Positions 24,287-48,686 of a stretch of 64,000 bases of DNA are shown in pieces. The stretch is taken from contig JAYQLI010000033.1 in NCBI GenBank assembly GCA_038143065.1, positions 37,906 to 101,905 on the forward strand. The letters run 5' to 3'. The translations under genes and the position numbers were made by a program. The notes beneath the pieces were generated by a model. That model ran no database searches. It was not told where the DNA came from and saw nothing but the letters and a program-made list of their open reading frames with translations. The DNA is from Rhodospirillales bacterium (GTDB lineage Bacteria; Pseudomonadota; Alphaproteobacteria; Bin95). Positions within the stretch are counted from its first letter, which is position 1, and each line of letters begins with the position of its first letter.

Positions 24287-24360
24287 TTTTGCCTCCAAAA
24301 GTGACACAGGAGTGACCAAACATCTGGGTGAGGTGTTAACCTATTGAAAACCGGAGATTA

Positions 24361-24425
24361 CAGTTGGTTAGAGCAGCGGAATCATAATCCGCGTGTCGGG
24401 GGTTCAAGTCCCTCCTCCGCTACCA
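24361..24425 (+). repeat. att site: 65-bp 3' copy of tRNA-Met
   Basis: CAGTTGGTTAGAGC...CCGCTACCA, one mismatch versus 12332-12396; 5' acceptor stem missing. Confidence 0.95.
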
Positions 24426-24567
24426 TTTCTTTCAATATTATCAATAATTTACAACGTCTCAAAAATCATTTTGAGGCGATTTTTTCATTACACACCTCTT
24501 ACACACTTTTTGGTTGGCTTCCAGTCGCTCCAGACTATATCGTTTTTATAGTGATTGGATGTGTTAG

Positions 24568-25105
24568 ATGCCTGTTTTGCGTGAAGATTCTGTGTTGATT
24601 ATGGATGGAGCTGTAAAGCTCTACAGGCGTGAGAGAAGCCGCAAATGGCAGGCAGCCTTCCAAATAGACGGCCAATACATTCGCATTTCAACTGGCAAGA
24701 GTGATTTGGACGAAGCCAAACAGGCTGCCTCTGACAGCTATTTGGAGTACAAGTTTCGACAAAAGAATGGCGTGCCAGTTGTTTCAAAGCGGTTCTCAGA
24801 TGTAGCTAAACTGTGCATCACAGAAATGTACAAGCAGCTGGAAAGTGGCGTTGGTAAGAGGTCTATCGCGATTATGTGATCGTGCTTGAGAAATATCTTA
24901 TTCCGTTCTTTGGCAAGATGCATGTAACAAGCATAACCTACGAAACACTCCAAAAGTTTGCACGCTGGCGCGAACAGCAGATGGGCAGGGAGCCCAAAGC
25001 ATCAACGCTGAACACACATAACTCTGCTCTTAACAGAGTGTTTGATGAGAGTGTTGCGCGCGGCTTTATGAACAAAACACAGGTGCCAACACTGATCAAC
25101 AAGGG
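24568..25105 (+). pseudogene. 5' half of a tyrosine integrase near-identical to 44572-45808
   Basis: Co-linear with 44572-45110 up to ...AACAAGGG, then similarity stops; catalytic domain absent. Confidence 0.92.
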
Positions 25106-25382
25106 CGGACTCAGTTTGGGCTAAAAATGTCAATTTTAAATACACTCAATTCATATATAATTTTAAGGGGAATACAACTCATGCGCGAGCTAATCCAGAC
25201 TTGGCCCGCAAGTTTGACGCGTGCACAGATTGACGCAAAAAAAAGTGTCTGCCTTGTTGCCATCAGAGTGTGAGGCAACACTCTTTTGCTAGACAAAATG
25301 GACGAAATTCACGTCAGCACAATTCGCTGGTTATCGGACCAGTGGGTCTCGGACCTGCCATGGTCATATGTCAGAAGAGCCA

Positions 25383-25481
25383 ATCAAATTGCAGCAAGCC
25401 AGTATGCATGAGGATGATGAAATGCGTTAGTTGCTTGCTCTTATCAGTGACACCGGGATGCGGCTGACACAGGCCGCAGGG
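25383..25481 (+). pseudogene. short relic of a third tyrosine recombinase
   Basis: Translates IKLQQASMHEDDEMR*LLALISDTGMRLTQAAG (box I TGMR motif). Confidence 0.6.
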
Positions 25482-25647
25482 CGCGGATCTTGCTTGATGG
25501 GTGGACTGATTCAACCCCAACAAATTCAATCCCATCTTTACCCATACATATTTAGTAATAATTAGACAGGTAAGGTTTCGTGGAACGTAAGAATGATGTT
25601 ACGCTTAATTAGTAAAAGTAAGCATTGGAAATGTGCGAAATAGAAAT

Positions 25648-27866
25648 ATGAAGATGGGTTTACAGATTCGTGTAAGAGGACAGGTTCAAGGGGTTGGTTT
25701 CCGACCCTTTGTATGGCGTGAGGCGCGTTCACTTGGCCTTGTGGGTGACGTCAAAAATGATAAGGAAGGTGTGCTTATCCACGTATCTGGCAATGCAATG
25801 CATGATCTGCCTGATGCGATCCGCACTTCTGCACCGCCATTGTGCGAGATCCATGGCATTGAGGTCACCGAGATGGTATGCGCGCCATCAGACCAGTTTA
25901 GGATACTGGTGTCTGGCGATGAAGGGGCGGAAACATCCTGTCCGCCGGATGCCCCATTTGCTCGGCCTGCATTGATGAGGTAAGTCAGGCGGGACGAAGG
26001 GCAGATTACGCTTTACTAACTGCACCAATTGCGGGCCGCGCTTTACGATTGTCGAACGTCTTCCCTATGATCGGCACAGGACGACGATGCGTAATTTCGA
26101 TATTTGCGAAGACTGTCGCGCCGAGTACGAAAATCCTCTTGACCGCAGATTTCATGCTCAACCTATTGCCTGTCCCAACTGTGGACCTCTCCTGACAATA
26201 AAACCCTATGCAGCTAATCCACTTGACGCTGCGTCATCACGAATTTGCAATGGAGAAATTGTTGCCGTCAAGGGATTGGGTGGGTTTCACCTAGCTTGTG
26301 ATGCGACGAACGCTGATGTTGTGCAATCCCTGCGGACACGCAAGCACCGTCCTTCCAAACCCTTTGCATTGATGGCCGATCTTGAAACCATTAGACAATT
26401 CACAGACCCATCGGATGAGGAGATAGATCTGCTGACCGGTCCCGACGCGCCAATTGTCTTGCTGGATAAAGTCAGTGGCAGACTTCCTGAGTCTATTGCG
26501 CCGGCCTTGTCACGACATGGGTGGATGTTGCCCTACACCCCTTGCATTGGCTTCTGTCCAAAAAGGTAGGGCGCCCGCTGATCATGACATCTGGGAATCT
26601 GAGTAAAGAGCCGCAGGTTATGGATAATGACGAGGCATTAGAAAAGCTCGCGCATATTGCTGACAGTTTTGTCCTGCACAATCGCCCGATAGCCCGCCGG
26701 GTTGACGACAGTGTTGTTCTGCCAACGCCATCAACGCCAATGGTTCTGCGCCGGGCGCGGGGGCAAACCCCTGGAACTCTTGCCTTGCCCATAAGCCTTC
26801 CAGACCGTCAAGTTGCCGCCTACGGCGCGGAATTGAAATCAGCCATTTGTTTGACGAAAAATGGTAGGGCGATGTTGTCGCATCATATGGGAGATTTGGA
26901 TAATGTCCTTGCCTATGAAGACTTCCTCAAAGCGGATCGGGATTTTGCCAATTTGATGGATCATCAACCGAAGCTGATCGCTGTTGACAGGCATCCAACG
27001 TATCTGTCGTCCAGATATGGCCGTGATCTTGCGGAAAAGGCGGGTCTTGCCTGCGTGGAAGTCCAACATCACCATGCGCATATGGCCGCGGCGCTGGGGG
27101 CACGCGGCTGGGATGGTGAACAGGCCGTCGGTATCATTCTGGATGGTTTGGGTTTTGGTGATGATGAGGCATTTTGGGGCGGTGAAGTTCTGGTCGGGAA
27201 CTATAAAACGTTCCGGCGGGCGGGGCAGTTGTCCTATGCGCCGCTCATTGGTGGTGACAGCGCGCAGCGCGAACCGTGGCGAAATGCGCTGGTTCGCTTG
27301 GACGCAGCTGGCCTCAACGCGGTTGCCGATCTGCTATTTTGCGATTATCCGGTCAGCCAGCTGCGCGCGGTGGCAGGCAAACACGGCCTTCGCACCACCT
27401 TCTAGTTCAGCCGGACGTTTGTTTGATGCCATCGCTGCCTGTCTTGGCATTTTGCCAGCAGGGCAGTCTTTTGAAGGTGAGGCTGCGATGCGGCTGGAAT
27501 CGCTCGCCTCTACGTCGCAAGATGATGGCTGGTACGCGTTAAGATGCTTGGGGGCCTCATTGATGAGCGAACTATTTGAAGAGCTTTTGGCTGACCAGAA
27601 GAGGGCGTTCCAGATGCAACAATCGCAAGACGCTGTCACGGCGGTATTGCGAAAGCATTTTCCGATATGGGGCGTCGCGTGGCGCTGGAGGCAGGTGCGC
27701 AAACAATAGCCATATCTGGCGGGTGTTTCCAAAACCGGTTGCTACTGACCATGGTGGCAGAGGAACTTCGGGAGTTCGAGCTTTGCGGCCCAGGGCCGGT
27801 CCCGATTAATGATGGCGGTCTGGCTTTTGGTCAGAAGCTGTGATTGCTCTGGCACAATCAAGCTGA
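25648..27866 (+). CDS. hypF: carbamoyltransferase HypF (frameshifted)
   Basis: Acylphosphatase GQVQGVGFRPFV, Zn fingers CTNCGPRF/CEDC/RRFHAQPIACPNCGP, KGLGGFHL, QHHHAH, SSAGRLFD, NDGG. Confidence 0.95.
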
Positions 27867-27934
27867 AATAGGGTGTTGGTTGTGTTTCTGATTATTCAAT
27901 TCTGAAGTACCATGCTTTGCAAAAGGAGGTTTTC

Positions 27935-28998
27935 TTGACAAAACCTGAGACACAAGCTGAGACACAAACTGGACAAACCGTCACATTTGCGTCGTGACCG
28001 TGTGACCATGGCCCACGCAGGTGGTGGCAAGGCGATGCGGGATTTGATTGATGGTGTTCGTTTCAGCTTTCGAACTAGACACATCCGAAGATCAGGCGCG
28101 CCTCGTATCGGATGCGATGAGCGAGCACGGTGCAAAACTCGCCTTTACGACTGATGGCTATGTGGTCACGCCGCTTGAGTTCGCCGGTGGTGATATTGGT
28201 AAGCTGGCAATTTGTGGGACTGTTAATGACCTCGCAGTAGGCGGGGCTAAGCCGCTTTGGCTGTCCGCCGGGTTCATCATCGAAGAAGGCTTTGAAATCT
28301 CCGTTTGCGTCGGGTGGTTTCAACAATGGCGTCCGAGGCGAAACGAGCGGATGTTCGTATCGTGACGGGCGATACCAAGGTGGTTGAGCGCGGTTCGGCT
28401 GACGGCCTTTACATCACAACGTCTGGTGTTGGGGTGATTCCGCCGGGCTGCAATCTGGGAGCGATCAGCATCCAAGAGGGCGATGTCGCAATCGTCAACG
28501 GTGTTTTGGGCGATCACGGGGCAGCTATATTGGATGCGCGCGGTGACCTTGCCCTGTCGACAACTGTCGAAAGTGATTGTCAGTCGCTCGCTTTGCTCAT
28601 GCAGGCAGTCATGAGTGCGGCGCCGAACCTGCGGGCGGCACGTGACTTGACGCGTGGTGGTTTGGCGTCTGCCCTTAACGAGATGGCGGAAACGGCCCAG
28701 CTCACTGTAGAAATTAATGAGAGTAAGTTGCCAATCCGGCCTGAGGTTCGCGGCGTGTGTGAAAATACTTGGTCTTGACCCGCTTTATCTTGCCAACGAA
28801 GGCACACTGGTCCTGTTTGTGCCAGAGAATGAAGCAGAAGCTGCGCTGGCATCAATGCGGGCGCAGGACGCTGGCCGTGACGCGGTGGTGATTGGCAAGG
28901 CGCGAAAGAAAGGGCGATTCCGGTCAATGAGGACCTTGTTCGGGGGAGGCGGGTTTGTTGATATGCTCGTTGGTGAACAGCTGCCGAGAATTTGCTGA
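27935..28998 (+). CDS. hypE: carbamoyl dehydratase HypE (frameshifted)
   Basis: [32 protein letters not shown] and C-terminal EQLPRIC. Confidence 0.95.
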
Positions 28999-29022
28999 GT
29001 CTCTTTTAGCTAGGTCTACACC

Positions 29023-30135
29023 CTATCTGGCACCGCCATATTGCCAGTAGGCAGCGCAGGCGCCTTCGGACGAAACCATCAAAGCCCCCAGCGGCATGTC
29101 AGGGGTGCACCTTTCCGAATTGTGGGCATGCAACGGGTTTGACGCGTCCTGTCATGACCTCTCCACAGGCGCACCCTTCTGGCTCTTTTTTAAGCTGTTT
29201 CGTTTTAACCCATAGCCGATGCAAATTTTTCTTCGGCGTCAAATTCCTGTATTTGGCTCGGACCCGTAAACCACTCGCATCTATCTCGCCAAGCCCACGC
29301 CACTCAAATGTAGGTCGTGGTTCAGGACGTCTTCAACAGAGGCGATGCTGATCATATTGCCATCGTCAGGCACGACCCGGGAATACTGGTTTTCAACTTC
29401 TGCACGCCCACTCGCCAATTGTCTTAGGACCGCGAGGATTGACTGCAGCAAGTCGAGCGGTTCAAAGCCGGCCACTACTATAGGTTTGTTGAAATCGCGG
29501 GCAATGAACTCATAGGGCTTTGTGCCAATGACCATCGAGACATGGCCCGGCCCCACAAAGCCGTCGATCATTGAAAGTGGATCTTCCAACAACGCCTTAA
29601 TCGGCGGCGGTACATAATGTGATTGCAGAATATGCTGAAATTTGTGAGCTCTTCACGAGCTGCCTGCTGAATGGCTATTGCCGTAGATGGCGTTGTCGTC
29701 TCAAACCCCAGCCCAAAGAAAACGACTTCTTTGTCGGGCTGACGACGGGCCAACTCCAGCGCGTCGAGAGGCGAATATACCATTCGCACATCAGCGCCAT
29801 CCGCCTTTGCTTGAAAAAGGGATTTTTTGTGCCCGGCACCCGCATCACATCGCCGAAGGTGGTCATGATAACATCGGGGCGTTCGGCGATTTCGACACAA
29901 TCATCTACACGGCTCATGGGCGTACACAGACTGGACAGCCGGGACCGTGGATGAATTCCAATCCGGGAGGGGTCAATTGTCGACCAAAAACGAAAGATGG
30001 CGTGGGTATGGCCGCCATACTTCCATGATGTGGATAGGCTTTTCGGCGGTGGCCCCTAATTCCTCAACACTCTCTCATAGCTGCCAGCAATGATCTGGCT
30101 GCCGATGGATCGCGAAATTCATCGACGAACTTCAT
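29023..30135 (-). CDS. hypD: hydrogenase formation protein HypD (frameshifted)
   Basis: [47 protein letters not shown]. Confidence 0.95.
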
Positions 30136-30421
30136 GTCTGACCTCCAAGGACCTTTCGCTTTCGAACATGGCCTCAAACTCTTCTTGCGCGTCACCCAAC
30201 GCGTGCAGGGTTTGCATGGTTTTTTCGGCTTCTTCCTCGTCGATAATGGCCATAGCGAAACCAACGTGGATCGGGACCCATTTATCAACGAGAGAGGCAA
30301 GACCTTCGCCAGAGACACAGGTGACATTTACCTTACGCTTTACGCCGGATACGTCCGCCAGCGCCAGATTGGCCTCAAAATCGGTTATCTCAACAATACG
30401 ACCAGGAATTCCAAGACACAT
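30119..30421 (-). CDS. hypC: hydrogenase chaperone HypC
   Basis: MCLGIPGRIVE N-terminus and HVGFAM. Confidence 0.95.
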   Translation of the reverse strand: MCLGIPGRIVEITDFEANLALADVSGVKRKVNVTCVSGEGLASLVDKWVPIHVGFAMAIIDEEEAEKTMQTLHALGDAQEEFEAMFESERSLEVRHEVRR

Positions 30422-30542
30422 ACCGTCCTCCAAATTGATAACAGCCCCCCAATTGGTCTTAGGCCAACCTCTACTTAACGAGACGACAATAGCATTGTGT
30501 CCCAAGGGAAAGGTCAACAGGCAACTATCAATCCGAATCTGT

Positions 30543-31544
30543 TCAGATCCTATGCGCGCAACGCCCAAGATCTCGGCGAATTTCATCCTCAGGCAAGTTG
30601 ATCCCGATGAAAACCAGAAAGCTTTTATCTGGTGCTCCGGGCAAGGGGTTCGATGGAGCATATATCGTGAACGATATTGATTAATTGTGGCAGCGGCTCG
30701 TCTGCAAAACACAGGATCCCCTTTACCCTTAGCAAATCTTCGGAATGTCGCATGATCCAGAACGAGAGGATGTCGCGAAACACATCATGATTTAGGGGCG
30801 TGTCAATTTCGATTGAAAAGGACGATATGCCATGGGTGTGATCATGGTCGTGGTCATGGTTGTGGTCATGGTTGTTGGTGTGAAGATGTTCATGGTCGCG
30901 TGAAGATGGTATGGATGGCGTTTTGTCCAGTGGCAGGAACATGGTATCGATCTCGGCCTCCGCGCCCATCACCACAATCTCGGCCAACGGATTTCTAGTC
31001 GCGAGGGTCGTGTAAATCTCGTTCACCTGTTCATTGGTTTCGAGTTCTGATTTGCTGACGACGATCCGGTCTGCCAGCGCAATCTGCTCCGCGGCCTCAA
31101 CGAAACGGACTACCTGATTGCGAATGGCTGGCGCCGCCGCAACACAGATGGTTTGCACCACCTTGATGTCTGATTTCAGGCGCAAGTCACGCGCGACAGT
31201 GCGCAGGATACTACCGGGATCGGCAAGGCCAGAGGTCTCTACGATACACCGCTCTATGCTATCTGTGTCGCGGCGTGTAATGAGTTCAACAAGGGCGGCG
31301 GCGAGGTCATCTTGGACCTCACAACAGACACAGCCATTCGGCAGACTAAGCATTTGCGTACCACCGGACATTGTTCCCAGAATCGCCCCGTCAACATCAA
31401 CATCCCCAAACTCGTTTACGAGCACAGCCGTTCCCGCACCAGCTGGAGATTTGAGATATTTATTGAGGAGAGTTGTTTTTGCCTGCACCGGAGAAAACCA
31501 GTAAGCAGGGTCATCGGAAACATATTGTTTTCTGATTTCAGCAT
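30543..31544 (-). CDS. CobW/COG0523 G3E-family metallochaperone GTPase with His-rich insert
   Basis: Walker A (frameshifted GFLGAGKT), VNEFG, GCVCC, ETSG, DHEHLHTNNHDHNHDHDHDHTH, LRVKG; upstream of and co-oriented with hypCD. Confidence 0.9.
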
Positions 31545-31715
31545 GCTCGTTTTTGAACTCTTATCTGATGAATCGTAAGGCTTTAAAAAATTTGCATTGA
31601 CATTATTTCGTTATTATATGCGCTATGGTGGGGCTTTATTATCTCTCAGAGATACTCGCAATGCTCCACATCGTTAATTTATTCACGCTTAAATGTCCAC
31701 CCAAGGAGAAGAAAA

Positions 31716-32506
31716 ATGAAAATTGCAACTGTCGGAAAAGGCGGGTCTGGCAAGACAACAATCGCTGGCACATTGACTAGGATCTTTGCAGATGACGGCC
31801 GAAAGATGCTTGCCATTGACGGTGACCCCAACCCGAATTTAGCACTCACTCTTGGCATGTCTCGCGACAAATCAGACAACATTACCTACATCCCGGCTTC
31901 AGTTATGAAGCGTGGTGGAAGAGGTGGATGGTGTGGTCCAGATGGTGCCGGCGATCCCGCGCAGAAGAGATTATCGAAAAATATGCTGCGTCAGCTGCTG
32001 ATAATGTGGACCTCATCGTGATGGGGCAACCGGGACATGGTACAGCTGGGTCGGGCTGCATGTGCGCATCGCACAGGGCGGTACGCGGCCTTGTTGCTGA
32101 ACTAACGGATTTTGGCGAGCATACGGTGACCGATATGGAAGCTGGTCTGGAACATCTTAAACGTGGTACCGCGCGCCATGTTGACATGATGCTTATCGTT
32201 GCGGAACCCTATTACCGTTCACTTGAAGCGGGGATGCGTACCGTCGCGCTGGCCAAGGAACTGGGGATAGAACACATCAAGGTTGTAGCAAACAAAGTCC
32301 GTAATAACGAGGACATGGAAGCCATTCAGACCTTCTGCGATCGCCACGAAATGGAAATCATCGGCACAGTTCCTCTTGGACGAAGATATGGTTATGCAGA
32401 GCGACAGGAATTGGCGCCTTTTGATTTTGCGCCCGACTCCTCTGGTGTTTCTTCAATTCGCAAGATCGCGCAGGCCATCGATGAACTTGCCAAACAGCCA
32501 AGTTAA
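31716..32506 (+). CDS. cooC: CooC/AcsF-type nickel-insertion ATPase (frameshifted)
   Basis: GKGGSGKT deviant Walker A, IDGDPNPNL, GCMC (CxC Ni site), DMEAGLEHL, VANKVR. Confidence 0.88.
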
Positions 32507-32914
32507 TGAATATCGGTGACCTGGCAAAGAAACTCTCAGTTTCGACTAAGACTTTGCGGCATTATGAAAAAATAGGCATCCTTCCACAGGCTAACCGCAG
32601 CGATAATGGCTACCGTACATTTTCACGGGGCCGCGGTAGGTCAAGCTCGCTTTATTGTCATGCTGAGACGTCTGGAATTGTCGCTGGAAGAAATACGCCA
32701 ACTTCTTGAGGGTAATCCAGACAGTCTTCGAAAAAACCTGATTAGCATTTTAGATGAAAAGCGCAGAGCCGCCATGGTTGAAGTGGCCGTGTTGCAGGGA
32801 AAAATCGAAGATTTAAATACACGCTCAACCAATCTTGCTACAATGCACAGTGCGATGGGTGGAAGGTGCATATGCCCTTTATTTGGTGAGAACTGTTCAT
32901 GTGACGGAGAATAA
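32506..32914 (+). CDS. MerR family regulator with C-terminal CxC-x6-CxC motif (frameshifted)
   Basis: MNIGDLAKKLSVSTKTLRHYEKIGIL...NGYR; tail CICPLFGENCSCDGE; start overlaps the cooC stop. Confidence 0.88.
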
Positions 32915-32975
32915 GGTCTAGTTTTTGATTATGCATGTTTTGTAAAAAATATTTTAAAAAAATATGAATAATGTG

Positions 32976-33007
32976 TTGACCTTTACCCGAGGGCAATCTG
33001 CCATTGT
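32976..33007 (+). promoter_or_regulatory. MerR-type long-spacer promoter/operator of the hydrogenase operon
   Basis: TTGACC-20 bp-CATTGT with imperfect dyad TTACCC-GA-GGGCAA in the spacer. Confidence 0.65.
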
Positions 33008-33069
33008 TTTGGTGTTTCTACAAACTATCAAGCTATAGTTAAACGCGATCGTATGATGGACATAGCTCA

Positions 33070-34344
33070 ATGGGGGATAAAATGGGTGAAAAAGTTGCAC
33101 GCTTAAAAGCAGAAGTTCCGACAAAAGTTAGCTATCTGCCTAGATTTGGATTGGATGAGGGTCCCGTAACCGAAGTTCATGCTTTCTGGCTGGCTGGTCT
33201 TAGTTGCGACGGTTGTTCCATTGCAGCAGTGGGAGCACAAAATCCGACAGTTGAACAATTGATAAGTGGATCAATTCCCGGCTACCCAAGGTCATTCTTC
33301 ACCACCCGGTATTGTCTGTCACGGTCGGCCATAAGTTTATGGAGGCATATCACGAAGCCAAGAATGGGACGCTTGGTGCACCATATGTTGTCATTCAGGA
33401 AGGGTCAGTCGCTGACGAGGAGATCGCCGGGGGAATTCGGCGGGTACTGGTCTGCTATGGGTGTCACGGTTGATGAGGATGGGACCCAAACTCCAATACC
33501 GACCGCACACTGGCTGCGCGATCTTGCGCCGGGGGCCGCGGCTGTCATAGCTGTTGGAACCTGTGCTACGTGGGGCGGTGTTCCTGCGGCGGCTGGCAAT
33601 CTTACAAATGCCATGTCGGTCATGGATTATCTTGGCAAGGAGTATCTGTCGACCCTCGGTCTGCCGCCGGTGAACATCCCAGGATGCGCCCCGCTCGGTG
33701 ACAACATCACTGAAACGATAACATCAGTTTTGATGTTCCTTGCCGGTTTTGGACCATTGCCTGAGTTCGACGAACTCGGCAGGCCAGCTTGGATGTTCCA
33801 GTCGACTGTGCACCGCGGATGTGTGCGGGCCGGTAATTATGAGGAAGGCAAATTCGCCGACGAGTACGGCCAAAAAGAGTGTCTTGTTGAACTTGGTTGC
33901 TGGGGACCGGTTGTACAATGCAACATGGTATCACGGGGGCCATTGGTCATAATGGGGGTGTATGAACACCGGCGGCATTTGCATCGGTTGCACCATGCCG
34001 GGCTTTCCTGATACATTGCGCCATTTTATAAGCGCCCGCCAGGCACAATGGTGTCTTCAAACATCTCGCAGCACGGGATCGTTCGTTTCCTACTTGCGGA
34101 AATTTACGCAGGACAACCAAAACCTGACAAGTCATTGGAAGAAGACGAGCGAGATTCCCGTCTGGTTGGGCGAATGTTGACGGCCGCCGCGGGTTTGGAA
34201 AGAAGGCGGTCAGCTTCTTCTATGAGAAGTTGAAGAGATCTGGAACGGAATTTACCCTGGCTCACGGCGTCAGCAGGAGCTTCAGAATCTGCTTCGCGGT
34301 ACCTAAATAAAGGCACCACGGAATTCAAGATTGCGGCGGAATAG
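33070..34344 (+). CDS. hylS: [NiFe]-hydrogenase small subunit, group 1l-like (no Tat signal), frameshifted
   Basis: WLAGLSCDGCS, GTCATWGG, NIPGCAP, HRGC...CLVELGCWGPVVQC, GGICIGCT. Confidence 0.9.
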
Positions 34345-34353
34345 GGGGCTGAC

Positions 34354-34658
34354 ATGACTCTTTGGGCGATTGGTTATTTAATAGGTGTAACTGTGGTCCT
34401 CGTCGTTGCATTGCTGCTGATCGGCATCCTACTGCAAAGCGCGGCGCATTCATCGACTGGCTACAGCGGCATCGGCAATTGTGGCCGACATCGACAGCAA
34501 CACCCGCTCCCGTATGGATGCTTGCTGCGACCAATGATGTTGCGAAGAGCCTGCTTGGCGGCGCGGAGGCTGTCCCGAACAGAACGCGATGGCCATCGTC
34601 AACGCTGTCGGCAGAGAGTGGGGATCAAGAACAGATGCAGGAAGAGGAGGTAGTGTAA
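34354..34658 (+). CDS. single-pass membrane protein TM1 (HylTM-like), frameshifted
   Basis: MTLWAIGYLIGVTVVLVVALLLIGILL followed by an amphipathic helix; TAATG overlap with the next gene. Confidence 0.75.
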
Positions 34659-34984
34659 TGGATTTGATTCTTGGAACTGACCCTATCGCAAGCTGGTGGC
34701 TGGCTGTTGCCGTTGTCGCCGTAGTTACGCTTGTTGTTGCAATTTTGTTGGCCCTCGTGATCCGCACTGCCTCGGCAATCAATGACGAAGTTGCCACTGT
34801 TTGGGCTAACGGTCAGAGGGTGGCGAACAACACCATCCATATCGCGGCGCTTTATCAGACCCGTGATTACGTCAAAGGTATCCTTGGACACGCTGGACAC
34901 ATACTGAAACACAGTCAGGCTATTCGCGATCACGCAACGGATTCTTCAAGCCACTCACAGTCTATTTTGCAGAAGGTGAATTGA
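34658..34984 (+). CDS. single-pass membrane protein TM2 (HylTM-like)
   Basis: WWLAVAVVAVVTLVVAILLALVI followed by a helical, His-containing tail. Confidence 0.8.
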   Translation: MDLILGTDPIASWWLAVAVVAVVTLVVAILLALVIRTASAINDEVATVWANGQRVANNTIHIAALYQTRDYVKGILGHAGHILKHSQAIRDHATDSSSHSQSILQKVN

Positions 34985-34985
34985 C

Positions 34986-35280
34986 ATGATTACCATCCTT
35001 ACATTCCTTACATGTCTGGCATCGCTGGCGTTGCTGGTTGTGGTCGCTATCGGTCTGATGCGTATCAACGCAGTGTTGGAGAGCATCGGAGGAACTGGCG
35101 AGCTACCTTGCCAAACTGCGTCTTGGCTTGCGCGCTATCGAGAGAGAAACATCGCATTTGCCGGCCGCTGCCCCGACCCTGAATACAGATTTAGAGGCAA
35201 TTGGCAATGGCTTGACCGCCGTAGATGCAACACTTGGCGAGGTCCATGCAGCCCTTGTGGCACAGGAGGGCCGGTCATGA
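34986..35280 (+). CDS. single-pass membrane protein TM3 (HylTM-like), frameshifted
   Basis: MITILTFLTCLASLALLVVVAIGL...YLAKLRLGLRAIERETSHL; ATGA overlap. Confidence 0.75.
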
Positions 35281-35572
35281 GCACATTAGCTTTGACGATC
35301 TGGATCACTACTCTCGTTGTCGTTGTTGTCGCTGTTGTGCCGCTTGCCTTATCGTTGCTTGCGCGCGCGCTTCGCAATGCGAGATCGATTGAGGTTACCT
35401 TTCTGACATGCTTGACGCAGGCGTCAAGATCGTTGGCCACACAGAGGCAGTGACCGCGCTAGATCAAACGCTATCAGCTGCTAGAGGACTTCAGGCTGTG
35501 GCACCCGCTATCGAGGAGAAAACCGGCGTTGTCGCAGATATTATTTCAAAACGGGCCGAGGGGAATGCGTGA
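35277..35572 (+). CDS. single-pass membrane protein TM4 (HylTM-like), frameshifted
   Basis: MSTLALTIWITTLVVVVVAVVPLALSLL followed by a helix; TGATG overlap. Confidence 0.75.
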
Positions 35573-35847
35573 TGATTACAATTCTAGCTTTTGCCACGTT
35601 GGCCGTCGTTCTGATCATCGTGCTGGTGGTCGCCTATCACCTGATCGGCATTTTTGTATCTTTAAAGCGTGGTGCTAACCACCTCGAAGCCCTGGCGGGC
35701 GGTCTGATTGCCATACGCGATAATACGATACCGCTGAACGGACGGGTGGATGAAATTAATGCTGGATTGACCGGCTTAGTGGAGCCACTCCTGGCAACAA
35801 ATAGCAACCTAGGCACGATTGTGAAGATCACTAGTGGCAGGTCGTAA
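35572..35847 (+). CDS. single-pass membrane protein TM5 (HylTM-like)
   Basis: MITILAFATLAVVLIIVLVVAYHLIGI...LAGGLIAIRDNTIPL. Confidence 0.8.
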   Translation: MITILAFATLAVVLIIVLVVAYHLIGIFVSLKRGANHLEALAGGLIAIRDNTIPLNGRVDEINAGLTGLVEPLLATNSNLGTIVKITSGRS

Positions 35848-35876
35848 ACCTAAATCAAAAGAAGAGGAATCTTTTA

Positions 35877-37746
35877 ATGTGCTTTGAAAATCTCCCAATC
35901 GAATTTGATAAGGATGGGAATGCATTTCTTAAGGACGGTATTCGCAATCCCTATGAATATCAGACGCGTACGATTGAAGAGCGCAATGCCAAGCTGAAAG
36001 AAGTTGCCGTAAAAAACGGACAGCTTGCTGATGTGGATTTCGACCCAGTTACCCGAGTTGCGGGCGCTCTGGCATTCCACTCAACGGTTGACCTCAAGAA
36101 AGGCACCGTCCTTGAGACTAATGCGATGGCTACATTGTTCCGTGGCTATGAGGTGATCCTGCGCGGTCGCGATCCGCGTGACGCTGCTTTTATCTCATCG
36201 CGCGCTTGTGGTGTTTGCGGTGGGGTACATTCGTACATCGGCGCTGTCAATTGAGATGGCTCTCGACATTAAGCCGCCTCCAATGGGCATTGTGGTTCGC
36301 AACCTGTTGCTTTCTTGTGAATATCTCTATGACAACCCGCTTCACCTCTTTGTGTTGTCAGGACCAGATTTTCTGAATCGCTGGTGAAGATGACCAATCC
36401 GGAAATCTGGGAAAAGGCTAAAAGCGCGGCTGCACCGGGGTATGAGACGCACGGTTATAAAAAGATTTCTGAGATTATGAGTGATCTTAATCCGCTTACC
36501 GGAAAGCTGTATCTTGAAGCTCTGAACATGACCCGCGTCGCGCGTGAAGTATATGTACTTTTGGGTGGTAAGTATCCACACCCTGAGACAATCATTCCGG
36601 GCGGTGTTACAACCACCATAACGACAACGACTTTCAACGAATTCTATCTGAAGATGTCGCAGTTTTTTGATTATGCGAAGAAATGTGTGGCCATCTGGGA
36701 TGACGTATTCGACTTCTTCTACGAGTGCGATCCGCGCTACAAAGGATGTTGGCAGAATTCCCGCGACGATGGTCGATTTTGGTCAGTGGGACCATGAGGA
36801 CCATTACGATGCGAGCTATGAGAACTGCAATGAGTGGGGTGAGAAGCGGTGGTCGACACCCGGCGTTGTCATCGACGGCAAGCTGGTCACCACTCGCCTG
36901 ACGGACATCAATGTTGGTTTGGAAGAGTTTGTCGAGCATTCGTACTATGAGAAATGGGAGGATTATCCCTTCAAAACAGACCCACTCGGCAATCCGCTGT
37001 CTCCGAACCACCCATGGAATAAAACGACCATTCCACGGCCAGGTGCGCAGAACTGGAAAGAGCGTTACAGTTGGTCTACCACACCAACTTGGGACCGACA
37101 GACGTTCGAAGCTGGCGCTTATGCAAGGATGTATATTTCGGCTCTTGCTCAGAAAATTCCGCATAGTGAGTATTTCGAGTCCACTGGCCACAGCATGAAG
37201 TTGAACATCCCGAAGGCTAACCTGCCGGAAGCCAACCTCGAATGGAATGTTCCGGATGTCTGGAACGCGTTTGAGCGTAACCGGGCGCGGGCCTATGCGG
37301 TTGCGTTCCAACCTTCTTGTGACCATGGAAAACCTTACTCGTGCTCTTGATCTTCAAAAGAAGGGTGAAACTCAGGTTGCGACCCCATTTGAAATTCCAA
37401 AGAAAGGCCATTCCATAGGTGTTGGTTTCTGGGGGCTGGACGGGGCTTCCTCAGTCATCACTGCGAGATTAAAGATGGGCTGCTGGCTAACTATCAGATA
37501 GTGACGCCCTCGACGGTGAATGCCTGTCCGGCAACTCCGTGGGGGGCGGTCCGTATGAAGGCTGTGTTGAATACACCGATTATCGAAACAACGTTCAAGG
37601 ACGAGAGCGACTTCCAGGGTATTGATATCCTTCGGGCGTTGCGCTCATTTGATCCTTGTATGCCTTGCACCACGCACGTGATGGTTGAGGGATCTGACCG
37701 GGTTGTTACCCGTGAGGTGACCACATGTGCCTGTGGTATTGATTGA
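35877..37746 (+). CDS. hylL: [NiFe]-hydrogenase large subunit, group 1l-like, frameshifted
   Basis: MCFENLPIEFD, FDPVTRVAG, FRGYE, L1 SRACGVCGGVH, L2 RSFDPCMPCTTH, then a tail ending CACGID. Confidence 0.93.
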
Positions 37747-37754
37747 CACGGCAC

Positions 37755-38402
37755 ATGGACGCGCCAACGGTAATGGTGGGGATCGTAGGGTACTCAGCGG
37801 TGGTGAAAGCTATCCGCTGGGACCTCACTTGCTGGAAGAGCTCGAAGCGATCTTTGGTGAAGACCCAAATGTGATACTTGAGAATTTCACATGGAGCCCT
37901 GTACATATCGTACAACGTTTGCAGGGCGGAGAAATGGAGCGACCCGACCGGGTTATTCTGGTCGGTCTCGCAGCAGACACCAATAAGCCCGGCACAGTAT
38001 CCGCGCATCGCTGGATTGGTGGATCACAGCCGGAAGTCATGGTGCAGGAACGTATTTACGAGGCTGTCACAGGCATCGTCGATCTAGAAAACACGTTGAT
38101 GATCGGCAGCTATTTTAAGGTGTGGCCAACGGAATGCCTGACAGTGGAGGTCGATCTTGCCGCTGACACGTTCGGGCGTTTGGTCATGGCTGAGAATGGT
38201 GGCAGGGACAGCGAAAGAATTGGAGCGCGAACTTGGATATTCGCCCATTGCTGTCAGGAAACAGATGGTGGAGGCAGTCAGGTCGCTGGTATTGAACGGA
38301 ATTGCGGCGAAGGATCCGGTTCTAAAAGACAAGGACGCCGATATGCTGTCGCCAATTCGTTCCTTTTCAGAAACGCATGTAGCTAACTTGTTAGGAGACT
38401 AG
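37755..38402 (+). CDS. divergent hydrogenase maturation protease-like protein, frameshifted
   Basis: ENFTWSPVHIVQRL...DRVILVG...ERIYEAVTGIVDLENTL...WP.ECLTVEV resembles the HybD/HupD fold; directly follows the large subunit. Confidence 0.55.
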
Positions 38403-38405
38403 GAG

Positions 38406-38764
38406 ATGAGCCAAGATAAAGAATCTGTAGCGCTCGACAGGATGATTGTCCGCGAAGACGTGCTGCAGATTTGTTACTGGTTTCAGGGTGAGGGGGTTTT
38501 GGCAATAGTTTTACGCCACAATCCGTCATGCCGTTCCTGCAAAATAATATTGATGTCGTGACTGAAGTGATGAGTGATCTTTCTAAGGATGGTACACTGA
38601 CCTTTGAAAATGGTGCTTACAGCTTCAGCGACGGCGGCAAGCGGCAGGCCGGCGCCATGTTCTATGACAGTTTCACTGAATTCCAGCAGGGAACCCACGG
38701 CGAATGCAACGCAGGTTGTTGTGATGGCGACGAGGTTTGCGATCACGAACACCATCACCATTAA
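38406..38764 (+). CDS. small helical (winged-helix-like) protein with Cys/His-rich tail, frameshifted
   Basis: REDVLQICYWFQGEG...YSFSDGGKRQA...HGECNAGCCDGDEVCDHEHHHH. Confidence 0.7.
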
Positions 38765-38778
38765 GGACAAGTGAGTCG

Positions 38779-39502
38779 ATGCAGATTGAAGACACGGAGC
38801 AGTCGTTGGTCGGTTACCGCACCAACGAGGAATGGCAGGATTTGCTGGCGCAGGCTGCAACGATGCTGGGCGCGCTGGATGAAATCGAAGACGAGGCAAC
38901 CCGCCAAAAGGTATTTTCCGCGATGGCGTGAAATTGATTCTGTCCATCGTGAAGCATTACATCGTCTGGTCCGACTTTTCAAAGAAGGCGTTCTTGAACA
39001 GGTTGTGACCGACCCGGCAATCAATTCTTTAATGGGAATGTATGACCTTCTTCCGCCTGAAACGCCCGGCTGTGCCAAGGTCTGGGATTTTATGGGGAAC
39101 GATGATGACGCTGACTCTGTGAGCCAGGAACAGGCGGTATCGGCAAGCGAGGTTACCATCCTGCCCCACTGGTCACCCGCACCGCCAAATGCGGTCGTCG
39201 AGGAAGGGTCTGCATATATATGTGAGATGGAAGAGGCGCGCGTCCTGCTTGTGCGTGTCGATGGCAATGATTATGCGCTGGAAGCAGAATGCCCAATTCA
39301 TAAAAAGTCTTTTGCCGACGGCCGGCTCGACAAGATGTTGTGGCACTGCGGTGAGGGGCCGGGATGTAGCTATGATATTCGCAACGGCAAGCGGTTGGGC
39401 GGCGGACAGGGTCTTAATTGTTTCCCGGTACGTGTTGAATCCGATGGTCGACGCATGATCGGCTTCGGAGTTCCGTTTGAACCCAAACTACCAGCTTTTT
39501 AA
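38779..39502 (+). CDS. hydrogenase accessory protein: helical N-domain plus degenerate Rieske-like domain
   Basis: HREALHRLVRL...DPAINSLMGMYDLLP; C-terminal ECPIH...CGEGPGCSYDIRNG...LNCFPVRVE. Confidence 0.65.
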
Positions 39503-39505
39503 AAA

Positions 39506-40011
39506 ATGGCGATCTTGGTTTCAGGTGTTGGTAATGAATTGAAAGGAGATGACGCCTTCCGGAATTCGTGCTGTGCAATGTCTGGATGATGACCCAAGGA
39601 AGCCTGAAAAGCTGCGTAACCCAACAAACAGGTATCGGTGGCATACATCTGGTTCAGGAATTGATGCGTGGGTATGAACTACTCATTCTGTTTGATGCAT
39701 TTGATCGTGGCGGCTCGCCAGGTGATCTGTGGTTGCTGGAACCTGATCTACCAAAGGCAGAAGAGATGACCCACGGTGAGCGCCGCGACTATTTCGCGGA
39801 TGTGCATTACGCGACACCCGTAAGGGCGTTGACACTGGCGCAGTCGGTGGGAGCCTTGCCCCCGCTGGTCCGCATAATCGGCTGTCAGCCTCAACAACTG
39901 GACACATTTGATACCGAGATGCACCAAACGGTGGCTGCTGCAGTGCCAAAAGCAGTTGATATGGCAATCGAAGTCATAGTCCAACTCGAGAAAAGGCAGA
40001 ATAAGGGGTAA
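39506..40011 (+). CDS. hydrogenase maturation endopeptidase (HupD/HybD family), frameshifted
   Basis: VSGVGNELKGDD, GIGGIHLVQEL, ILFDA, DVHY, IIGCQP. Confidence 0.88.
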
Positions 40012-40040
40012 AAAACAAAAACTTTACAAGGAGGGTAGGA

Positions 40041-41131
40041 ATGTTTATGCAACAAAAGCCTAACAAAATGTCCACGATAGTCGCATTACTTGCTTGCATA
40101 AGTACAGGGGCAGCCGCGGACCAAATCAGCATTGTTGATCAGCGTGATCGCACCGTCACGCTTGATGGTGAAGCAAAACGCGTTGTCACCATCCCAATTC
40201 CGGCAGCATCGATGTTTATCTCGGTTGATGGTGGTACAGACCGCCTCGTTGCTATGCACCAGTTGTCAAAAACGGCGATCAAAGGCCGTATCTTGCAACG
40301 GTTCTACCCTGATGCCCTGTCCATTCCATCGAACATCACAGGTAAGGGTTTTAGCTTTGTTCCTAATGCAGAAAGGCTTTTGGCCCTCGAACCCGATCTT
40401 GTGTTCCAGTGGGGACATCTGAATGATGACATCATCGACCCCCTAGTCAATGCAGGTCTGAACGTGGCGTTGATCAAGATTGGTCCCGAGGCCGCCACCC
40501 GCAAATGGCTGAACATCATGGGCACGGTGACCGGCAAGCCTGAAAAGGCAAAGGCGATGATCAAATGGCGTGACGAGGTCATGGCAAGAATTGAAAACTG
40601 CTACAGCGGATATCGCTGATGACCAAAAGCCGCGCACGCTCTATTTCATGAATTACCTGTCGAAACTTCGTGTGGCAGGCGGTCCATCCTACAACAATTT
40701 CTATATCAATCTGGCCGGTGGCAAGAATCCAGCGCGTGAATTGGGAATGTTCCAAGAAGTGGGTATCGAACAAGTCATCGCCTGGGATCCGGAAGTCATT
40801 CTGCTTAACGGTTTCGAAGCCAAACTGAGCCCACAGGATGTTTACAACAATCCCAATTTGGCGGATGTGGCTGCGGTCAAGAACCGCCGTGTCTACAAGA
40901 TGCCGCTTGGCGGTATCGCGCTGGGACCCGCCTAATCAGGAAAGCCCGCTGACATGGCTCTGGCTGTCGATGATCCTGCATCCCGAAAAATTTAAGTGGG
41001 ACATGTACGAGCGTATCAACAGCGGTATCAACTCATGTACGGTCAGGATGTTTCGAAGGATGATGTAGAGAACATCCTTCGTTTTGACATGAACGCAGAT
41101 GCTGCTAATTATGATATGTTTTCAGGGCTAG
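40041..41131 (+). CDS. type II ABC transporter substrate-binding protein (siderophore/B12/metal-chelate class), frameshifted
   Basis: Signal peptide, DQRDRTVTL, NAERLLALEPDLV, EQVIAWDPEVI, AVKNRRVYKMP. Confidence 0.85.
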
Positions 41132-41140
41132 GCCTATTGA

Positions 41141-42181
41141 ATGAACCTCAATGCAAAAACAATAGTCCCAGCCGCTGTTAAGCGGCTGGGGATAATGAGG
41201 TTTTTGTTAGGCGCTCTTGGGATTTCCATCGTGATCTCCCTTGGCATTGGGCGCTTTTGGCGTGCCGATTGCTCACGTAGCCGCCATTCTGCTTGATGGC
41301 ATTATCCCCTTGGAGCCAACTTGGAAACCTGTTGAGGAACGTGTTGTTGAACTAATCCGTATGCCCCGCATCCTGATTGCCGGGCTTGCCGGCGCAGGGC
41401 TTGCCGTGGCTGGTGCCGCGCTGCAGGGGGTTTGCAATCCCGCTGGTGGGGCCGCAGATCATCGGTGTGTCATCCGGTGCTGCTTTCGGTGGTTCTTTTG
41501 CAATTCTGATATCCGAAAGCCAATTCATATTGATCGGGGCGGCATTTGGTTCTGGAATTCTGGCGATGGTGATTGTCTACGCGGTCAGCCCGGCAGCAAG
41601 GACGCGCCTCAATCCTTATGCTGGTGCTTTCGGGAATTGTGACCAGCGCGTTTCTTTCGCCGTGATTTCAGTACCAAATTCGTTGCCGACCTGACGATAA
41701 ACTGCCAGCCATCGTTTTCTGGTTGATGGGTAGTTTTGCATCTGCAAGCTATGAAAAAGGTGGCGCTGATAGGCATTCCGGTGGCAATCGGAACCATCGT
41801 TATCTATCTCATGCGCTTTCAGATCAACGTACTGTCCTTGGTGATGAGGAGGCCCAGTCCTTGGGGCTGAAGGTTGAAAGGACACGCTGGATTGCTCTTG
41901 TGGCGGTGGCATTGATCAGTGCGGCTGTAGTTGCCGCTGCGGGTATCGTTGGCTGGTTGGACTGGTGATTCCACATTTTGCGCGAATGCTTACCGGCCCG
42001 GATCACCGGGTTCTGATACCGGCGTCGGCGTTGATTGGGGGGGTATATTTGATTCATGTCGACAATGTCGCCAGAGCGTCTATCGCGGCGGAAATACCTG
42101 TGGGCATTATTACCGCCATGCTTGGCGCGCCAGTCTGCCTTTTATTGCGCCGCGCTGCCAACAGGTTGGTCGTCCAAATGA
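41141..42181 (+). CDS. FecCD/BtuC-type permease, frameshifted
   Basis: [48 protein letters not shown]. Confidence 0.88.
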
Positions 42182-42909
42182 TCAAGGTTCAACAGGCTGC
42201 TTTTCGGTATAGTGACGAATGGGTGTTTCGTAACGTCAGTTTCACCTTGGCCAAGGGGCAGACCGCGGCAATTCTTGGGCCGAACGGCAAGGGCAAGACC
42301 ACACTTTTGAAATCCATTATTGGACTGCATCCTCTAGCCGAGGGATCAGCCGAAACCGTTGGCCAAATAGGATATGTCGCCCAGAAAAACGACATTGCCT
42401 TTTCCTACAAAGTGATTGATGTCGTCGTGATGGGACGCGCGGCGCATATTGGTTTGTTTCAAACACCAAGCCATAAGGATTATCAGATCTGAGGCATACT
42501 CTGGATCGACTTGGGATCAGTGATTTTGCCGAAAGGATATTCAGCCAGCTTTCGGGCGGCGAGCGTCAGCTGGTCATGATTGCACGGGCGCCTCAGATGT
42601 GGTGCTGGTGATGGATGAACCAACATCTGCGTTAGATTTCTTCAATCAGGCACTGATCATGAAGACTTTACGCCGGATCAGTGCGGAAGACGGGTTAACA
42701 GTCCTCATAACGACGCATGTGCCCCAGCAGGTACAAGTGCTGGCGGACAGGGTTTTGTTAATGTACGCGCCCGACGGGCAGGGTGAGAACTGGACAGGAC
42801 ATGCTGTCGGAGGAAAAATTGGAAGAGGCTTTATGGTGTGCCTATCAAATCGATAACGCTTCAGCATGAGGGCAACAGCATTTCAGCGCTTGTCCCGTTA
42901 TTTATCTAA
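42178..42909 (+). CDS. ABC transporter ATPase (FepC/BtuD-like), frameshifted
   Basis: [28 protein letters not shown]. Confidence 0.88.
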
Positions 42910-42931
42910 CCCCATCGACCGTCCGAAACGG

Positions 42932-43559
42932 TCATTTGTCTGTGTCGATGCGGGCTGCGATGAAGGCGTCCATGCTTTCACAATTTTTTGACAGTGCGGC
43001 GATTGACGGGAAGTCACTATCTGGAAGCGTTGCAGGGAAAATATGATTTACGAAGCTGAAAGCAGTCGCGCAGGTGATATCTGTCTGTAACAGGCTGTTC
43101 CCGTCAAATAATCCTTGCCTTTGAGCTTTTGCTCCAACAACTCAAACCCTTGTTTGCACTGCCGTAATAGCCTGTCTATACGCCCGGGTTCAGGAACAGC
43201 GCGACGGCGTTCGGCGTTTGCGGTCATTGAACGGTCGATTGCACCCGTGGTAACTGCCAATATCTGCAAGGCTTCGCGGCGGCGTTCGCCCGAGATAGGG
43301 ACCAGTGCGCGCGCCGGTCCAGCAGCCTCGTCATAATGATCAAGGATAGCGGAGCTTTCAATCAGTATTTTGCCGTTTTCAAGCTGTAATGCCGGCACCC
43401 TGCCTACCGGGTTTACCGCTTCGCGTTTTTCTTCGTCATCGACGGCCGATATCACCGAGTGTTCAAAAGAGATACCAGAATGTTGAGAGAAATACCAACC
43501 CGGCGAACATAGGGTGAGAGGAACCTGCCAAACAGGATGGGCGCATCGTTTTTCATCAT
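42932..43559 (-). CDS. glutathione S-transferase family protein, frameshifted
   Basis: SPYVRRV, NPVGRVPAL, ILIESSAILDH. Confidence 0.85.
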
Positions 43560-45808: not shown

Positions 45809-45832
45809 ATCCAGATCAAGAAGGGAATAGTT

Positions 45833-48682: not shown

Positions 48683-48686
48683 TCAA

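Follow-up and report, generated by a model that had tools for sequence, protein, structure and literature searches.

A CooC-family ATPase as candidate nickel insertase in group 1l [NiFe]-hydrogenase clusters that lack hypA and hypB

HypA and HypB are the standard nickel-delivery pair for [NiFe]-hydrogenases, whose Fe(CN)2CO moiety is made by HypC, HypD, HypE and HypF. How, then, would nickel reach a hydrogenase whose cluster keeps the last four genes and has neither of the first two? The question is raised by a stretch of 64,000 nucleotides of contig JAYQLI010000033.1 (C33) from the assembly GCA_038143065.1, deposited as a Rhodospirillales bacterium (positions 37,906 to 101,905 of the forward strand); this whole stretch is called the window below. 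From 24.4 to 44.4 kb, the window consists of an integrative island of 20 kb, with a tRNA-Met gene as insertion site and the complete cluster of a group 1l (Hyl) [NiFe]-hydrogenase as cargo. To our knowledge, the group 1l enzyme is biochemically uncharacterised. It has been reported as the prevailing hydrogenase of Antarctic desert soils and as widespread in marine bacteria (10.1101/2020.08.06.239558; PMC10305171).

As a whole, the comparison of this locus with its relatives suggests a swap of metallochaperone in [NiFe]-hydrogenase maturation: nickel would be inserted without HypA and HypB by the cluster's own CooC-family ATPase, a reading to which a probability of about 0.6 is given. It is carried by what was observed of gene content, conservation, co-occurrence and motifs. 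A previous annotation of the window, made from its letters and referred to here as the sequence-only reading, had proposed that CooC and/or a CobW-type GTPase replace HypA and HypB. The CooC half of that proposal appears well supported by comparative genomics in three independent samples; the CobW half does not appear to be general.

Group 1l clusters have been described by the signature order HylS, five transmembrane (TM) open reading frames (ORFs), HylL, the Rieske protein HylE and HupD (10.1101/2020.08.06.239558). In the island, five TM ORFs lie between the subunit genes, and Rieske HylE and HupD follow downstream. Among the 1l large subunits of the set, identity is 77-90%, that of Marinovum algicola FF3 included; this named 1l carrier (PMC10305171) is locus L017 (genome G047) in the CooC family set. 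The 1l assignment of the window cluster was made by large-subunit identity and gene order. Concerning the NiFe-binding cysteine motifs, the C-terminal DPCMPCTTH was read in the window and the N-terminal RACGVCGGVH was seen in the 1l family consensus, that stretch being frameshifted in the window. The Hyl cluster of Hymenobacter roseosalivarius (Ortiz et al., 10.1101/2020.08.06.239558) has the same HylS-TM1-5-HylL-HylE-HupD order; in its description, as far as seen, other conserved ORFs are unlabelled and nickel insertion is not discussed. The window copy differs from that description in its place on a tRNA-Met island and in having CobW, MerR and an ATP-binding cassette (ABC) importer as additions.

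The genes named by the sequence-only reading lie where it had put them (Pfam; tblastn against intact homologues), and its observation that hypA and hypB are lacking while hypC, hypD, hypE and hypF are kept holds for the whole assembly. HypA (PF01155) gave 0 matches over the cut-off in the assembly, and two HypA seeds gave no tblastn match at E ≤ 1. Nothing in the assembly exceeded the HypB cut-off (TIGR00073, 121 bits); the best match, 37 bits at C35:1694021, was rejected as HypB, the gene being UreG (226 bits). The CO dehydrogenase (CODH) protein CooS (TIGR01702) also had 0 matches in the assembly, acetyl-CoA synthase (ACS) not having been searched for, and the cooC-like gene is present there in a single copy.

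CooC, HypA and HypB across group 1l clusters

The first survey started from the CooC-like protein, which has 764 relatives at E ≤ 1e-5. A pattern scan limited to a single genome for each species yielded 314 relatives; 80 loci were retained, many of them truncated, and their ORFs were clustered and the representatives annotated. Within these 80 loci, the small subunit was found in 37, the large subunit and HypF in 35 each, the Rieske protein and HycI in 32 each, HypD and HypE in 29 each, MerR in 28, the protein family u220 in 27, and CobW and HypC in 22 each. Transporters of the Nik/Opp, FecCD or TonB-dependent types are recurrent in the same loci.

HypA exceeded its cut-off in 10 of the 45 CooC-bearing genomes, leaving 35 without it, and HypB in 8. 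CooS was found in none of 46 genomes, own assembly included (ACS was again not searched for). The CooC-like protein is therefore taken not to be a CODH maturation factor and to be of the CooC family by sequence only, which agrees with the sequence-only reading that it is not there for a CO dehydrogenase.

Each 1l large subunit appears as two PF00374 stretches, and this served as a guide for counting extra large subunits. Nine of the ten HypA-positive genomes have an additional, non-1l large subunit, which in eight is on the same contig as hypA. As for the 35 HypA-negative genomes, 32 have only 1l-type large subunits, two have none and one (G050) has an extra fragment. The mutual exclusion of cooC and hypAB, for which the sequence-only reading had asked for a survey, holds in most of these genomes (35 of 45 without HypA), without being absolute (G083 and G065, discussed below), and hypAB in most cooC-bearing 1l loci, the outcome by which that reading had agreed to fall, was looked for and did not appear.

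The second survey was independent of CooC. It drew on 561 metagenome relatives of the large subunit, from which 80 loci were kept and scored with the profiles of the first survey. In the 25 loci of at least 12 kb, CooC was found in 22, the HypB profile in 0, CobW in 4 and the family u188 in 7; at 15 kb or more, 17 of 18 loci have CooC. Where at least 1.5 kb was available downstream of the large subunit (55 loci), u220 was present in 53, the Rieske protein in 48 and the family u132 in 47. The leftovers of this survey comprised 199 ORFs, from which 103 cluster representatives were kept (at least two loci or at least 90 aa); neither PF01155 nor PF02492 was found among 102 of these 103, one ORF of about 2040 aa being excluded.

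The third survey covered the Bacteroidota through a phylum-wide draw of 401 genomes and an order-wide draw (Cytophagales) of 401 genomes. The one match of the phylum-wide draw, G461, was rejected as 1l and kept as a contrast, as it is a 1h-like cluster. It shares with the 1l clusters a large subunit scoring 598 bits against the 1l profile, a Rieske-like protein, HycI and hypFCD, but its subunit genes are adjacent, with no TM ORFs between them, and are followed by hypA, hypB, hypF, hypC and hypD, CooC being absent. The three true 1l genomes of the Cytophagales have CooC in 3/3, HypA over the cut-off in 0/3 and HypB in 0/3, with a single large subunit each. In two Bacteroidota 1l genomes, cooC is located between hupD and hypC, and CobW was not seen in those two loci. 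Across the surveys, group 1l clusters almost always include CooC.

Could hypA and hypB be present and have been missed, through incomplete assemblies, frameshifts or divergence, maturation being canonical? HypA is a short protein, many metagenome-assembled genomes (MAGs) were included, the window contig is error-ridden and its organism is only partly assembled. Nevertheless, HypA and HypB are also missing from genomes that, to judge by their record titles, are isolates and single-contig chromosomes (L015, L017, L019, L036, L045, L057, L059 and L087), the same hidden Markov models readily caught hypAB wherever a second hydrogenase is present, and also in the 1h-like G461, and the tblastn search with HypA seeds was empty in the assembly even at the permissive threshold given above. 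An oversight of this kind is considered very improbable.

In SUP05-type genomes (L049, on a contig of G069, and L039, in G063), a hypC-cooC-u188 unit adjoins a 1d-type hydrogenase cluster. As this unit and hypA are found on the same contig, two maturation sets can sit side by side.

The other candidate of the sequence-only reading is the COG0523/CobW-type GTPase encoded at 30628..31560 on the minus strand (PF02492 and PF07683; Walker A disrupted in the window), a G3E relative of HypB that could be the true HypB substitute, with CooC secondary. Its translation does contain the GCVCC motif and the His-rich insert DHEHLHTNNHDHNHDHDHDHTH that had been pointed out. A CxCC motif with a His-rich insert resembling the His stretches of HypB would suit such a role (PMC2770081); in the window, cobW divergently adjoins cooC and is co-oriented with hypCD, and CobW stands beside Hyl clusters in 22 of the 80 CooC-selected loci. 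It was found, however, in only 4 of the 25 long loci selected by large subunit and not seen in the two Bacteroidota loci examined, so that it cannot be the general solution, and cobW is usually beside metal transporters, which fits a metal-supply role. Of the earlier proposal, the CooC part is therefore supported (22 of 25 loci; 3/3 in Bacteroidota), whereas CobW is not supported as a general replacement. The GTPase shares PF02492, PF07683, the CxCC motif and a His-rich stretch with the COG0523 proteins CobW, YjiA and ZigA, but it is linked to a hydrogenase cluster and scores below every NCBIfam equivalog cut-off (CobW, 112 vs. 332 bits; ZigA, 69 vs. 600). That it is the actual replacement for HypB is regarded as quite improbable.

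The CxC site of the CooC-like ATPase and the proteins around it

The CooC-family ATPase, candidate nickel insertase for HylL, is encoded at 31716..32503 on the plus strand and carries the deviant Walker A sequence GKGGSGKT, the CxC site GCMC and the stretch DMEAGLEH, all three as quoted by the sequence-only reading. CooC has been described as performing ATP-dependent nickel insertion into CODH (PMC9164220) and as a member of the MinD/BioD class (PMC2770081; PMC9164220). The best PDB match of the family profile is CooC1 of Carboxydothermus hydrogenoformans (3KJE, E = 3.7e-42), with the CxC aligned, and the next is MinD (E = 9e-12); the archaeal ATPase-type HypB is not among the PDB matches of this profile at E ≤ 1e-5. 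None of the 20 aligned CooC-like sequences departs from the deviant Walker A lysine or from the two CxC cysteines. GCMC itself occurs in 74 of 98 family ORFs, the rest being TGA-split halves, antisense ORF calls or unrelated ParA-like ORFs. With CooC1, the family thus shares its fold family, the deviant Walker A lysine and the CxC site; it differs in that the island gene is embedded in a hydrogenase cluster, that no CODH was found in the 46 genomes, and that some members have a TGA codon.

The ATPase-type HypB of Thermococcus kodakarensis works together with HypA, which is absent here. This protein of the Mrp/MinD family provides a precedent for the replacement of the HypB GTPase by a P-loop ATPase (PMC9164220). 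For group 1m clusters, which belong to a different hydrogenase group and to Actinobacteriota, a 'CooC-type' Ni-insertion NTPase has been noted (Ray et al. 2022, PMC9561532), the main text of that paper being silent on HypA, HypB and CooC in 1l. The words HypA and HypB are likewise absent from the main texts of the 1l literature that was searched, and no paper combining 'group 1l' with 'hypB' was found there; Supplementary Table S7 of 10.1101/2020.08.06.239558 may list the cooC-like gene as a 'CO dehydrogenase maturation factor'.

In all 11 split-looking cooC genes, which come from two lineages, the codon for the first Cys in the CxC site is replaced by an in-frame TGA. The context is GSG-TGA-MC-ASH in nine loci and GAG-TGA-AC-GSH in two, both halves are conserved around the TGA in related cooC loci, and the comparison set consists of 47 distinct cooC genes with TGC or TGT at that Cys. 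The codons are located at L065:1187-1189, L066:2739-2741, L067:1827-1829, L103:12988-12990, L104:6339-6341, L105:14405-14407, L112:8066-8068, L115:14471-14473, L134:3273-3275, L140:19767-19769 and L141:12166-12168. The TGA probably stands for selenocysteine (Sec), giving UxC, a pattern that would mark a Cys/Sec pair at a metal ligand; Sec at a nickel ligand is known from [NiFeSe] hydrogenases. Gene callers would split such TGA-form genes in two.

The consensus hairpin considered as a selenocysteine insertion sequence (SECIS) is weak in TGA-form cooC (-7.3 kcal/mol, one compensatory pair). Detection of SECIS by folding energy was dropped: the mean minimum free energy is not lower in Sec-type segments (-15.3) than in Cys-type segments (-22.6), a comparison that is confounded by GC and gives no support either way. 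SelB exceeded its cut-off in one of the three genomes with a TGA-form cooC, the other two being a single-cell genome and a small MAG. Among the papers listed in the literature search, none dealt with a CooC that is a selenoprotein. In the window's own assembly, C35:592829-594709 encodes a full-length SelB (435 bits), so the C35 organism probably makes selenoproteins.

A different task for the ATPase has to be weighed at this point, namely delivery or repair of the unusual Fe-S clusters of HylS, or help in assembling the membrane complex, with nickel entering unaided or through SlyD or UreE/UreG. The MinD/BioD class, in which CooC is placed, includes the Mrp/NBP35 Fe-S carriers. The cooC gene is directly upstream of merR-hylS in many loci, merR being kept between cooC and hylS in 28 of the 80 CooC-selected ones; UreG is encoded in the window's assembly, and G3E matches below the cut-off (about 215 aa) occur in 19 of the 45 genomes. 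The 1l small subunit has, moreover, been reported to have a changed proximal-cluster ligand (10.1101/2020.08.06.239558). Set against these points, the CxC motif is that of the CooC1 nickel site, CooC1 is by far the best solved match, well ahead of MinD, and the Bacteroidota cooC lies amid maturation genes in the order hupD-cooC-hypC. Also, the first Cys is replaced by probable Sec in 11 loci, a substitution of the kind seen at the nickel ligand of [NiFeSe] hydrogenases, and the G3E matches are not universal, 18 of the 45 genomes having none at E ≤ 1e-10. A role of CooC in Fe-S supply or complex assembly is considered unlikely.

The large subunit, on which CooC would act, has peculiar termini in group 1l. 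The 77 distinct 1l large subunits with a full N-terminus all start with MCF..LP, on a 55-residue extension, and CAC occurs in the peptide downstream of DPCxxCxxH in 97 of 100 complete tails, the three exceptions being non-1l enzymes. In the window, HylL starts with MCFENLPIEFD, the MCF..LP start being at 35877-35900, and ends with DPCMPCTTH followed by VMVEGSDRVVTREVTTCACGID, the tail being at 37678-37746. Both MCF and CAC are absent from the large subunits of the 1h-like G461 and the 1d-type L049.

Two accessory proteins are encoded just downstream of the large subunit. The first, u220 (37755..38396, plus strand; tblastn), is probably a divergent, endopeptidase-like HycI paralogue, with an hhalign probability of 87% against HycI (E = 4e-6). 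The second, u132 (38412..38758, plus strand; tblastn and alignment), has a predicted winged-helix fold (AlphaFold2 predicted local distance difference test, pLDDT, of 83; MarR-like matches at E of about 3e-3) and a Cys/His-rich tail, HGECNAGCCDGDEVCDHEHHHH in the window. It matches no Pfam family, and its alignment shows an invariant H-x2-C-x3-C-C motif, with His-rich tails in many members. A relationship with HypA or HypC was rejected, given the winged-helix fold and an hhalign probability of 0.2% against HypC. From these features, u132 could be a metal-binding accessory protein or metallochaperone, or a metal sensor.

The prediction of a complex between a CooC dimer and u132 scored 0.46, against 0.01 for the best control, and is a faint hint of contact, as calibration had put 116 of 157 solved complexes and 2 of 215 mismatches at or above the mark, and passing scores of 0.60 or under came from 18 of the 157 solved complexes and from both passing mismatches. 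The prediction runs shared at least 58% of their contacts, with a partner pLDDT of at least 66.

Reading frames, gene order and surroundings of the island

The window shows a feature on which the sequence-only reading was silent: nearly every gene of the island is interrupted. The largest standard-code ORF between 23 and 46 kb has 313 aa, and at least 34 frame switches were counted within 25.6-44 kb. The gene set was recovered by Pfam scans of stop-to-stop fragments on both strands, together with tblastn searches with intact homologues, to which the island genes are colinear at 55-80% identity. Homopolymer-linked errors were rejected as the source of the breaks, there being no homopolymer bias (16 of 34 junctions near a run of at least 4, vs. 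0.51 expected by chance). Recoding of TGA does not account for the short ORFs either: with TGA taken as sense the ORF total rises, but code 4 fragments still hop frames.

With at least 34 frame switches in 18 kb, the island might be taken for a decaying, non-functional pseudogene cluster. Contigs from four public runs of four studies, however, span 25600-44366 nearly end to end, and concur against the window at 12 listed and 142 unlisted indel places. They are mutually consistent and free of these indels, so that the breaks of the window are attributed to assembly errors rather than decay and the cluster is taken to be intact in nature. The places include 31917 and 31963 in cooC and 31476 and 31490 in the Walker A region of cobW, where the contigs omit 1 nucleotide each; the frame switch of cooC in the window is accordingly explained by the two surplus nucleotides. 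One of the contigs (X7) differs from the window by 95 substitutions and 177 gap columns. On the main contig, UreG (C35:1694024-1694595) is likewise split over two frames, from which the indel errors appear to be a property of the assembly. Together with the colinearity with intact homologues, these data refute the pseudogene explanation for practical purposes, and gene calls from GCA_038143065.1 are unreliable. Against the four contig sets, the island (25600-44500) has about 150 small indel errors in 18.9 kb. Within the assembly, the 2.86-Mb contig C35 has normal ORFs, but C33 and the other small contigs do not.

The order of the cargo is as follows. The carbamoyltransferase gene hypF (25609..27867, plus strand) has its Acylphosphatase, zf-HYPF, Sua5 and HypF_C domains in three frames and is colinear with a 780-aa HypF. 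It precedes hypE (27975..28995, plus; AIRS and AIRS_C), whose four frame pieces are 73-85% identical to the HypE of L078. On the minus strand follow hypD (29014..30135; PF01924 on four fragments, and tblastn) and hypC (30137..30433; PF01455), the latter in one frame and 75% identical over 99 aa. Beyond cobW and cooC, a MerR-family regulator of the metal-responsive CueR/ZntR/CadR-like type (32485..32911, plus; PF00376, PF09278 and NCBIfam) leads to hylS, the small-subunit gene (33070..34344, plus; Oxidored_q6 and NiFe_hyd_SSU_C), 68% identical to the L015 small subunit. The five short TM ORFs between the subunits, HylTM1-5 (34354..35841, plus), were found by tblastn to clusters u100, u111, u121, u117 and u105. 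They are followed by hylL (35877..37746, plus), seen as PF00374 fragments with 75-81% identity to the L011 large subunit. After u220 and u132 come the Rieske-type HylE (38743..39499, plus; 66% identical to the L011 Rieske protein, the cluster representative matching PF00355) and the HupD/HycI maturation endopeptidase (39506..40008, plus; PF01750 and TIGR00072). A metal ABC importer, composed of Peripla_BP_2, a FecCD permease and an ATPase (40041..42909, plus; Pfam and tblastn), recurs beside Hyl clusters. The cargo ends with a glutathione S-transferase-like gene and u188 (42944..43928, minus, with u188 at 43560-43928; GST_N and tblastn); the only lead on u188 comes from an atlas and points to FmdE-like proteins.

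The att sites given by the sequence-only reading proved real and the cluster is a mobile island. The direct repeats 24384-25105 and 44388-45110 are 94-96% identical at a spacing of 20,004 nucleotides, and both consist of the 3' half of tRNA-Met and the 5' part of the integrase gene; tRNA-3'-derived repeats thus flank the cargo with an integrase adjacent, as in tRNA-targeting islands. At attL (24340..24450, plus strand, by sequence reading), the 3' half of a tRNA-Met-like gene is the repeat core (repeat D3, 24384-24450 / 44388-44454); ARAGORN made no call there, probably through assembly errors. The island integrase, a tyrosine recombinase fragmented in the window (24568..25590, plus), has Phage_int_SAM domains at 24858-25121, and its 5' part recurs at 44465-45110. 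At attR (44388..44430, plus, by repeat comparison), the 3' half of tRNA-Met precedes the next island's integrase. Complete tRNA-Met genes are found at 12320 and 57245. No excision joint of the island was seen in the contigs of the four public runs, and the loose end that contigs share at 44366 was rejected as such a joint, as it is error-garbled window sequence. Many small contigs of the assembly carry related integrases, with paralogues of about 70% nucleotide identity on C47, C8, C2, C42, C9, C5 and C12.

The segments on either side are further islands. The one at 12400-24400, of about 0.6 GC, holds gamma-glutamyltranspeptidase, SDR, an ABC transporter of the Opp/SBP_bac_5 type, an rve transposase and a phage-type integrase (23311-23781, minus strand). 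The stretch 44450-62400, a third island plus flank, holds copper and redox homeostasis genes: integrase, restriction endonuclease, DsbA/ScsC, cytochrome c, CopD and multicopper oxidase, followed by tRNA-Met, LspA, SCO1, DsbB, two MerR regulators and MauE.

As for the host, C33 probably derives from a different organism than C35, a second one of lower coverage within the same assembly. Its rpoN and corA are 31% and 43% identical, respectively, to C35's own copies, and the larger small contigs tested have tetranucleotide correlations of 0.77-0.92, below the C35 range (at least 0.957). Nine same-genus genomes contain no DNA match to the island, and the genus may not be the island's host; they likewise have no match to the core-looking left flank with rpoN and corA (window 1-12400), and were of no use as a source of an intact copy. 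The closest named relatives of the C33 CorA are only 54-60% identical and mostly from Alphaproteobacteria. Sequence near-identical to 31587-40008 was found in 20 public runs from 16 studies, at 0.84-0.86 of sampled words; these are mostly estuary and seawater metagenomes, and the island or its host is therefore taken to be widespread.

A candidate route for nickel insertion and its meaning

In the proposed route, HypC, HypD, HypE and HypF would make Fe(CN)2CO as usual. By analogy with CooC1, Ni(II) would be bound in a CooC dimer, between its two CxC motifs (or UxC, depending on the lineage), ATP hydrolysis would release the nickel from CooC to the large subunit HylL, and the HupD-type protease would then cut off the C-terminal peptide of HylL. 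The Met-Cys-Phe start and tail CAC of HylL, u132 and the endopeptidase-like paralogue may belong to the same route. The COG0523 GTPase, MerR and the ABC importer would form a lineage-specific metal-supply add-on, not the core replacement.

Several points weigh against this reading. Two surveyed genomes combine hypAB with 1l enzymes in ways that do not fit it: in G065, where hypAB is present, the only large subunit detected is of the 1l type, and in G083 hypAB is 5 kb from the 1l large subunit. Many of the surveyed genomes are MAGs of unstated completeness, and 3 of the 25 long loci selected by large subunit have no CooC within reach. The absence of HypAB from the own genome is weak evidence, since it covers only what was assembled and C33 probably derives from a second, partly assembled organism. 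Hymenobacter, the genus of the one validated 1l organism (H. roseosalivarius, the only one shown to oxidise H2), is not among the 120 matches listed. Fe-S cluster carriers, too, belong to the MinD/Mrp-like class in which CooC is placed. Escherichia coli hypA and hypB mutants are partly rescued by added nickel, so that loss of HypAB need not imply replacement. Finally, two 1l carriers, Robiginitalea biformata and M. algicola FF3, the latter with CooC and no HypA or HypB over the cut-off, are reported to consume no H2 in culture (PMC10305171).

A fuller version of the CooC reading can be put forward only tentatively, as one that is less likely than not. Group 1l would have a pathway distinct from HypA/HypB, in which CooC, in its Cys or Sec form, hands nickel to HylL by way of the MCF start and the tail CAC, with u132 as partner or sensor; the module would travel on small islands, and one transfer would give a working hydrogenase without the Hyp nickel machinery of the host.

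If nickel insertion by CooC is true, the client range of the CooC family would extend from CODH/ACS to hydrogenases. It would also account for the transfer of a self-sufficient hydrogenase on an island of 20 kb, consistent with the frequent horizontal transfer that has been reported for 1l, and would show which accessory genes should be included in heterologous 1l expression; it may bear, too, on the inactivity of the two isolates in culture. As for the metal site itself, the alternation of Sec and Cys at the CxC would offer a natural handle on it.

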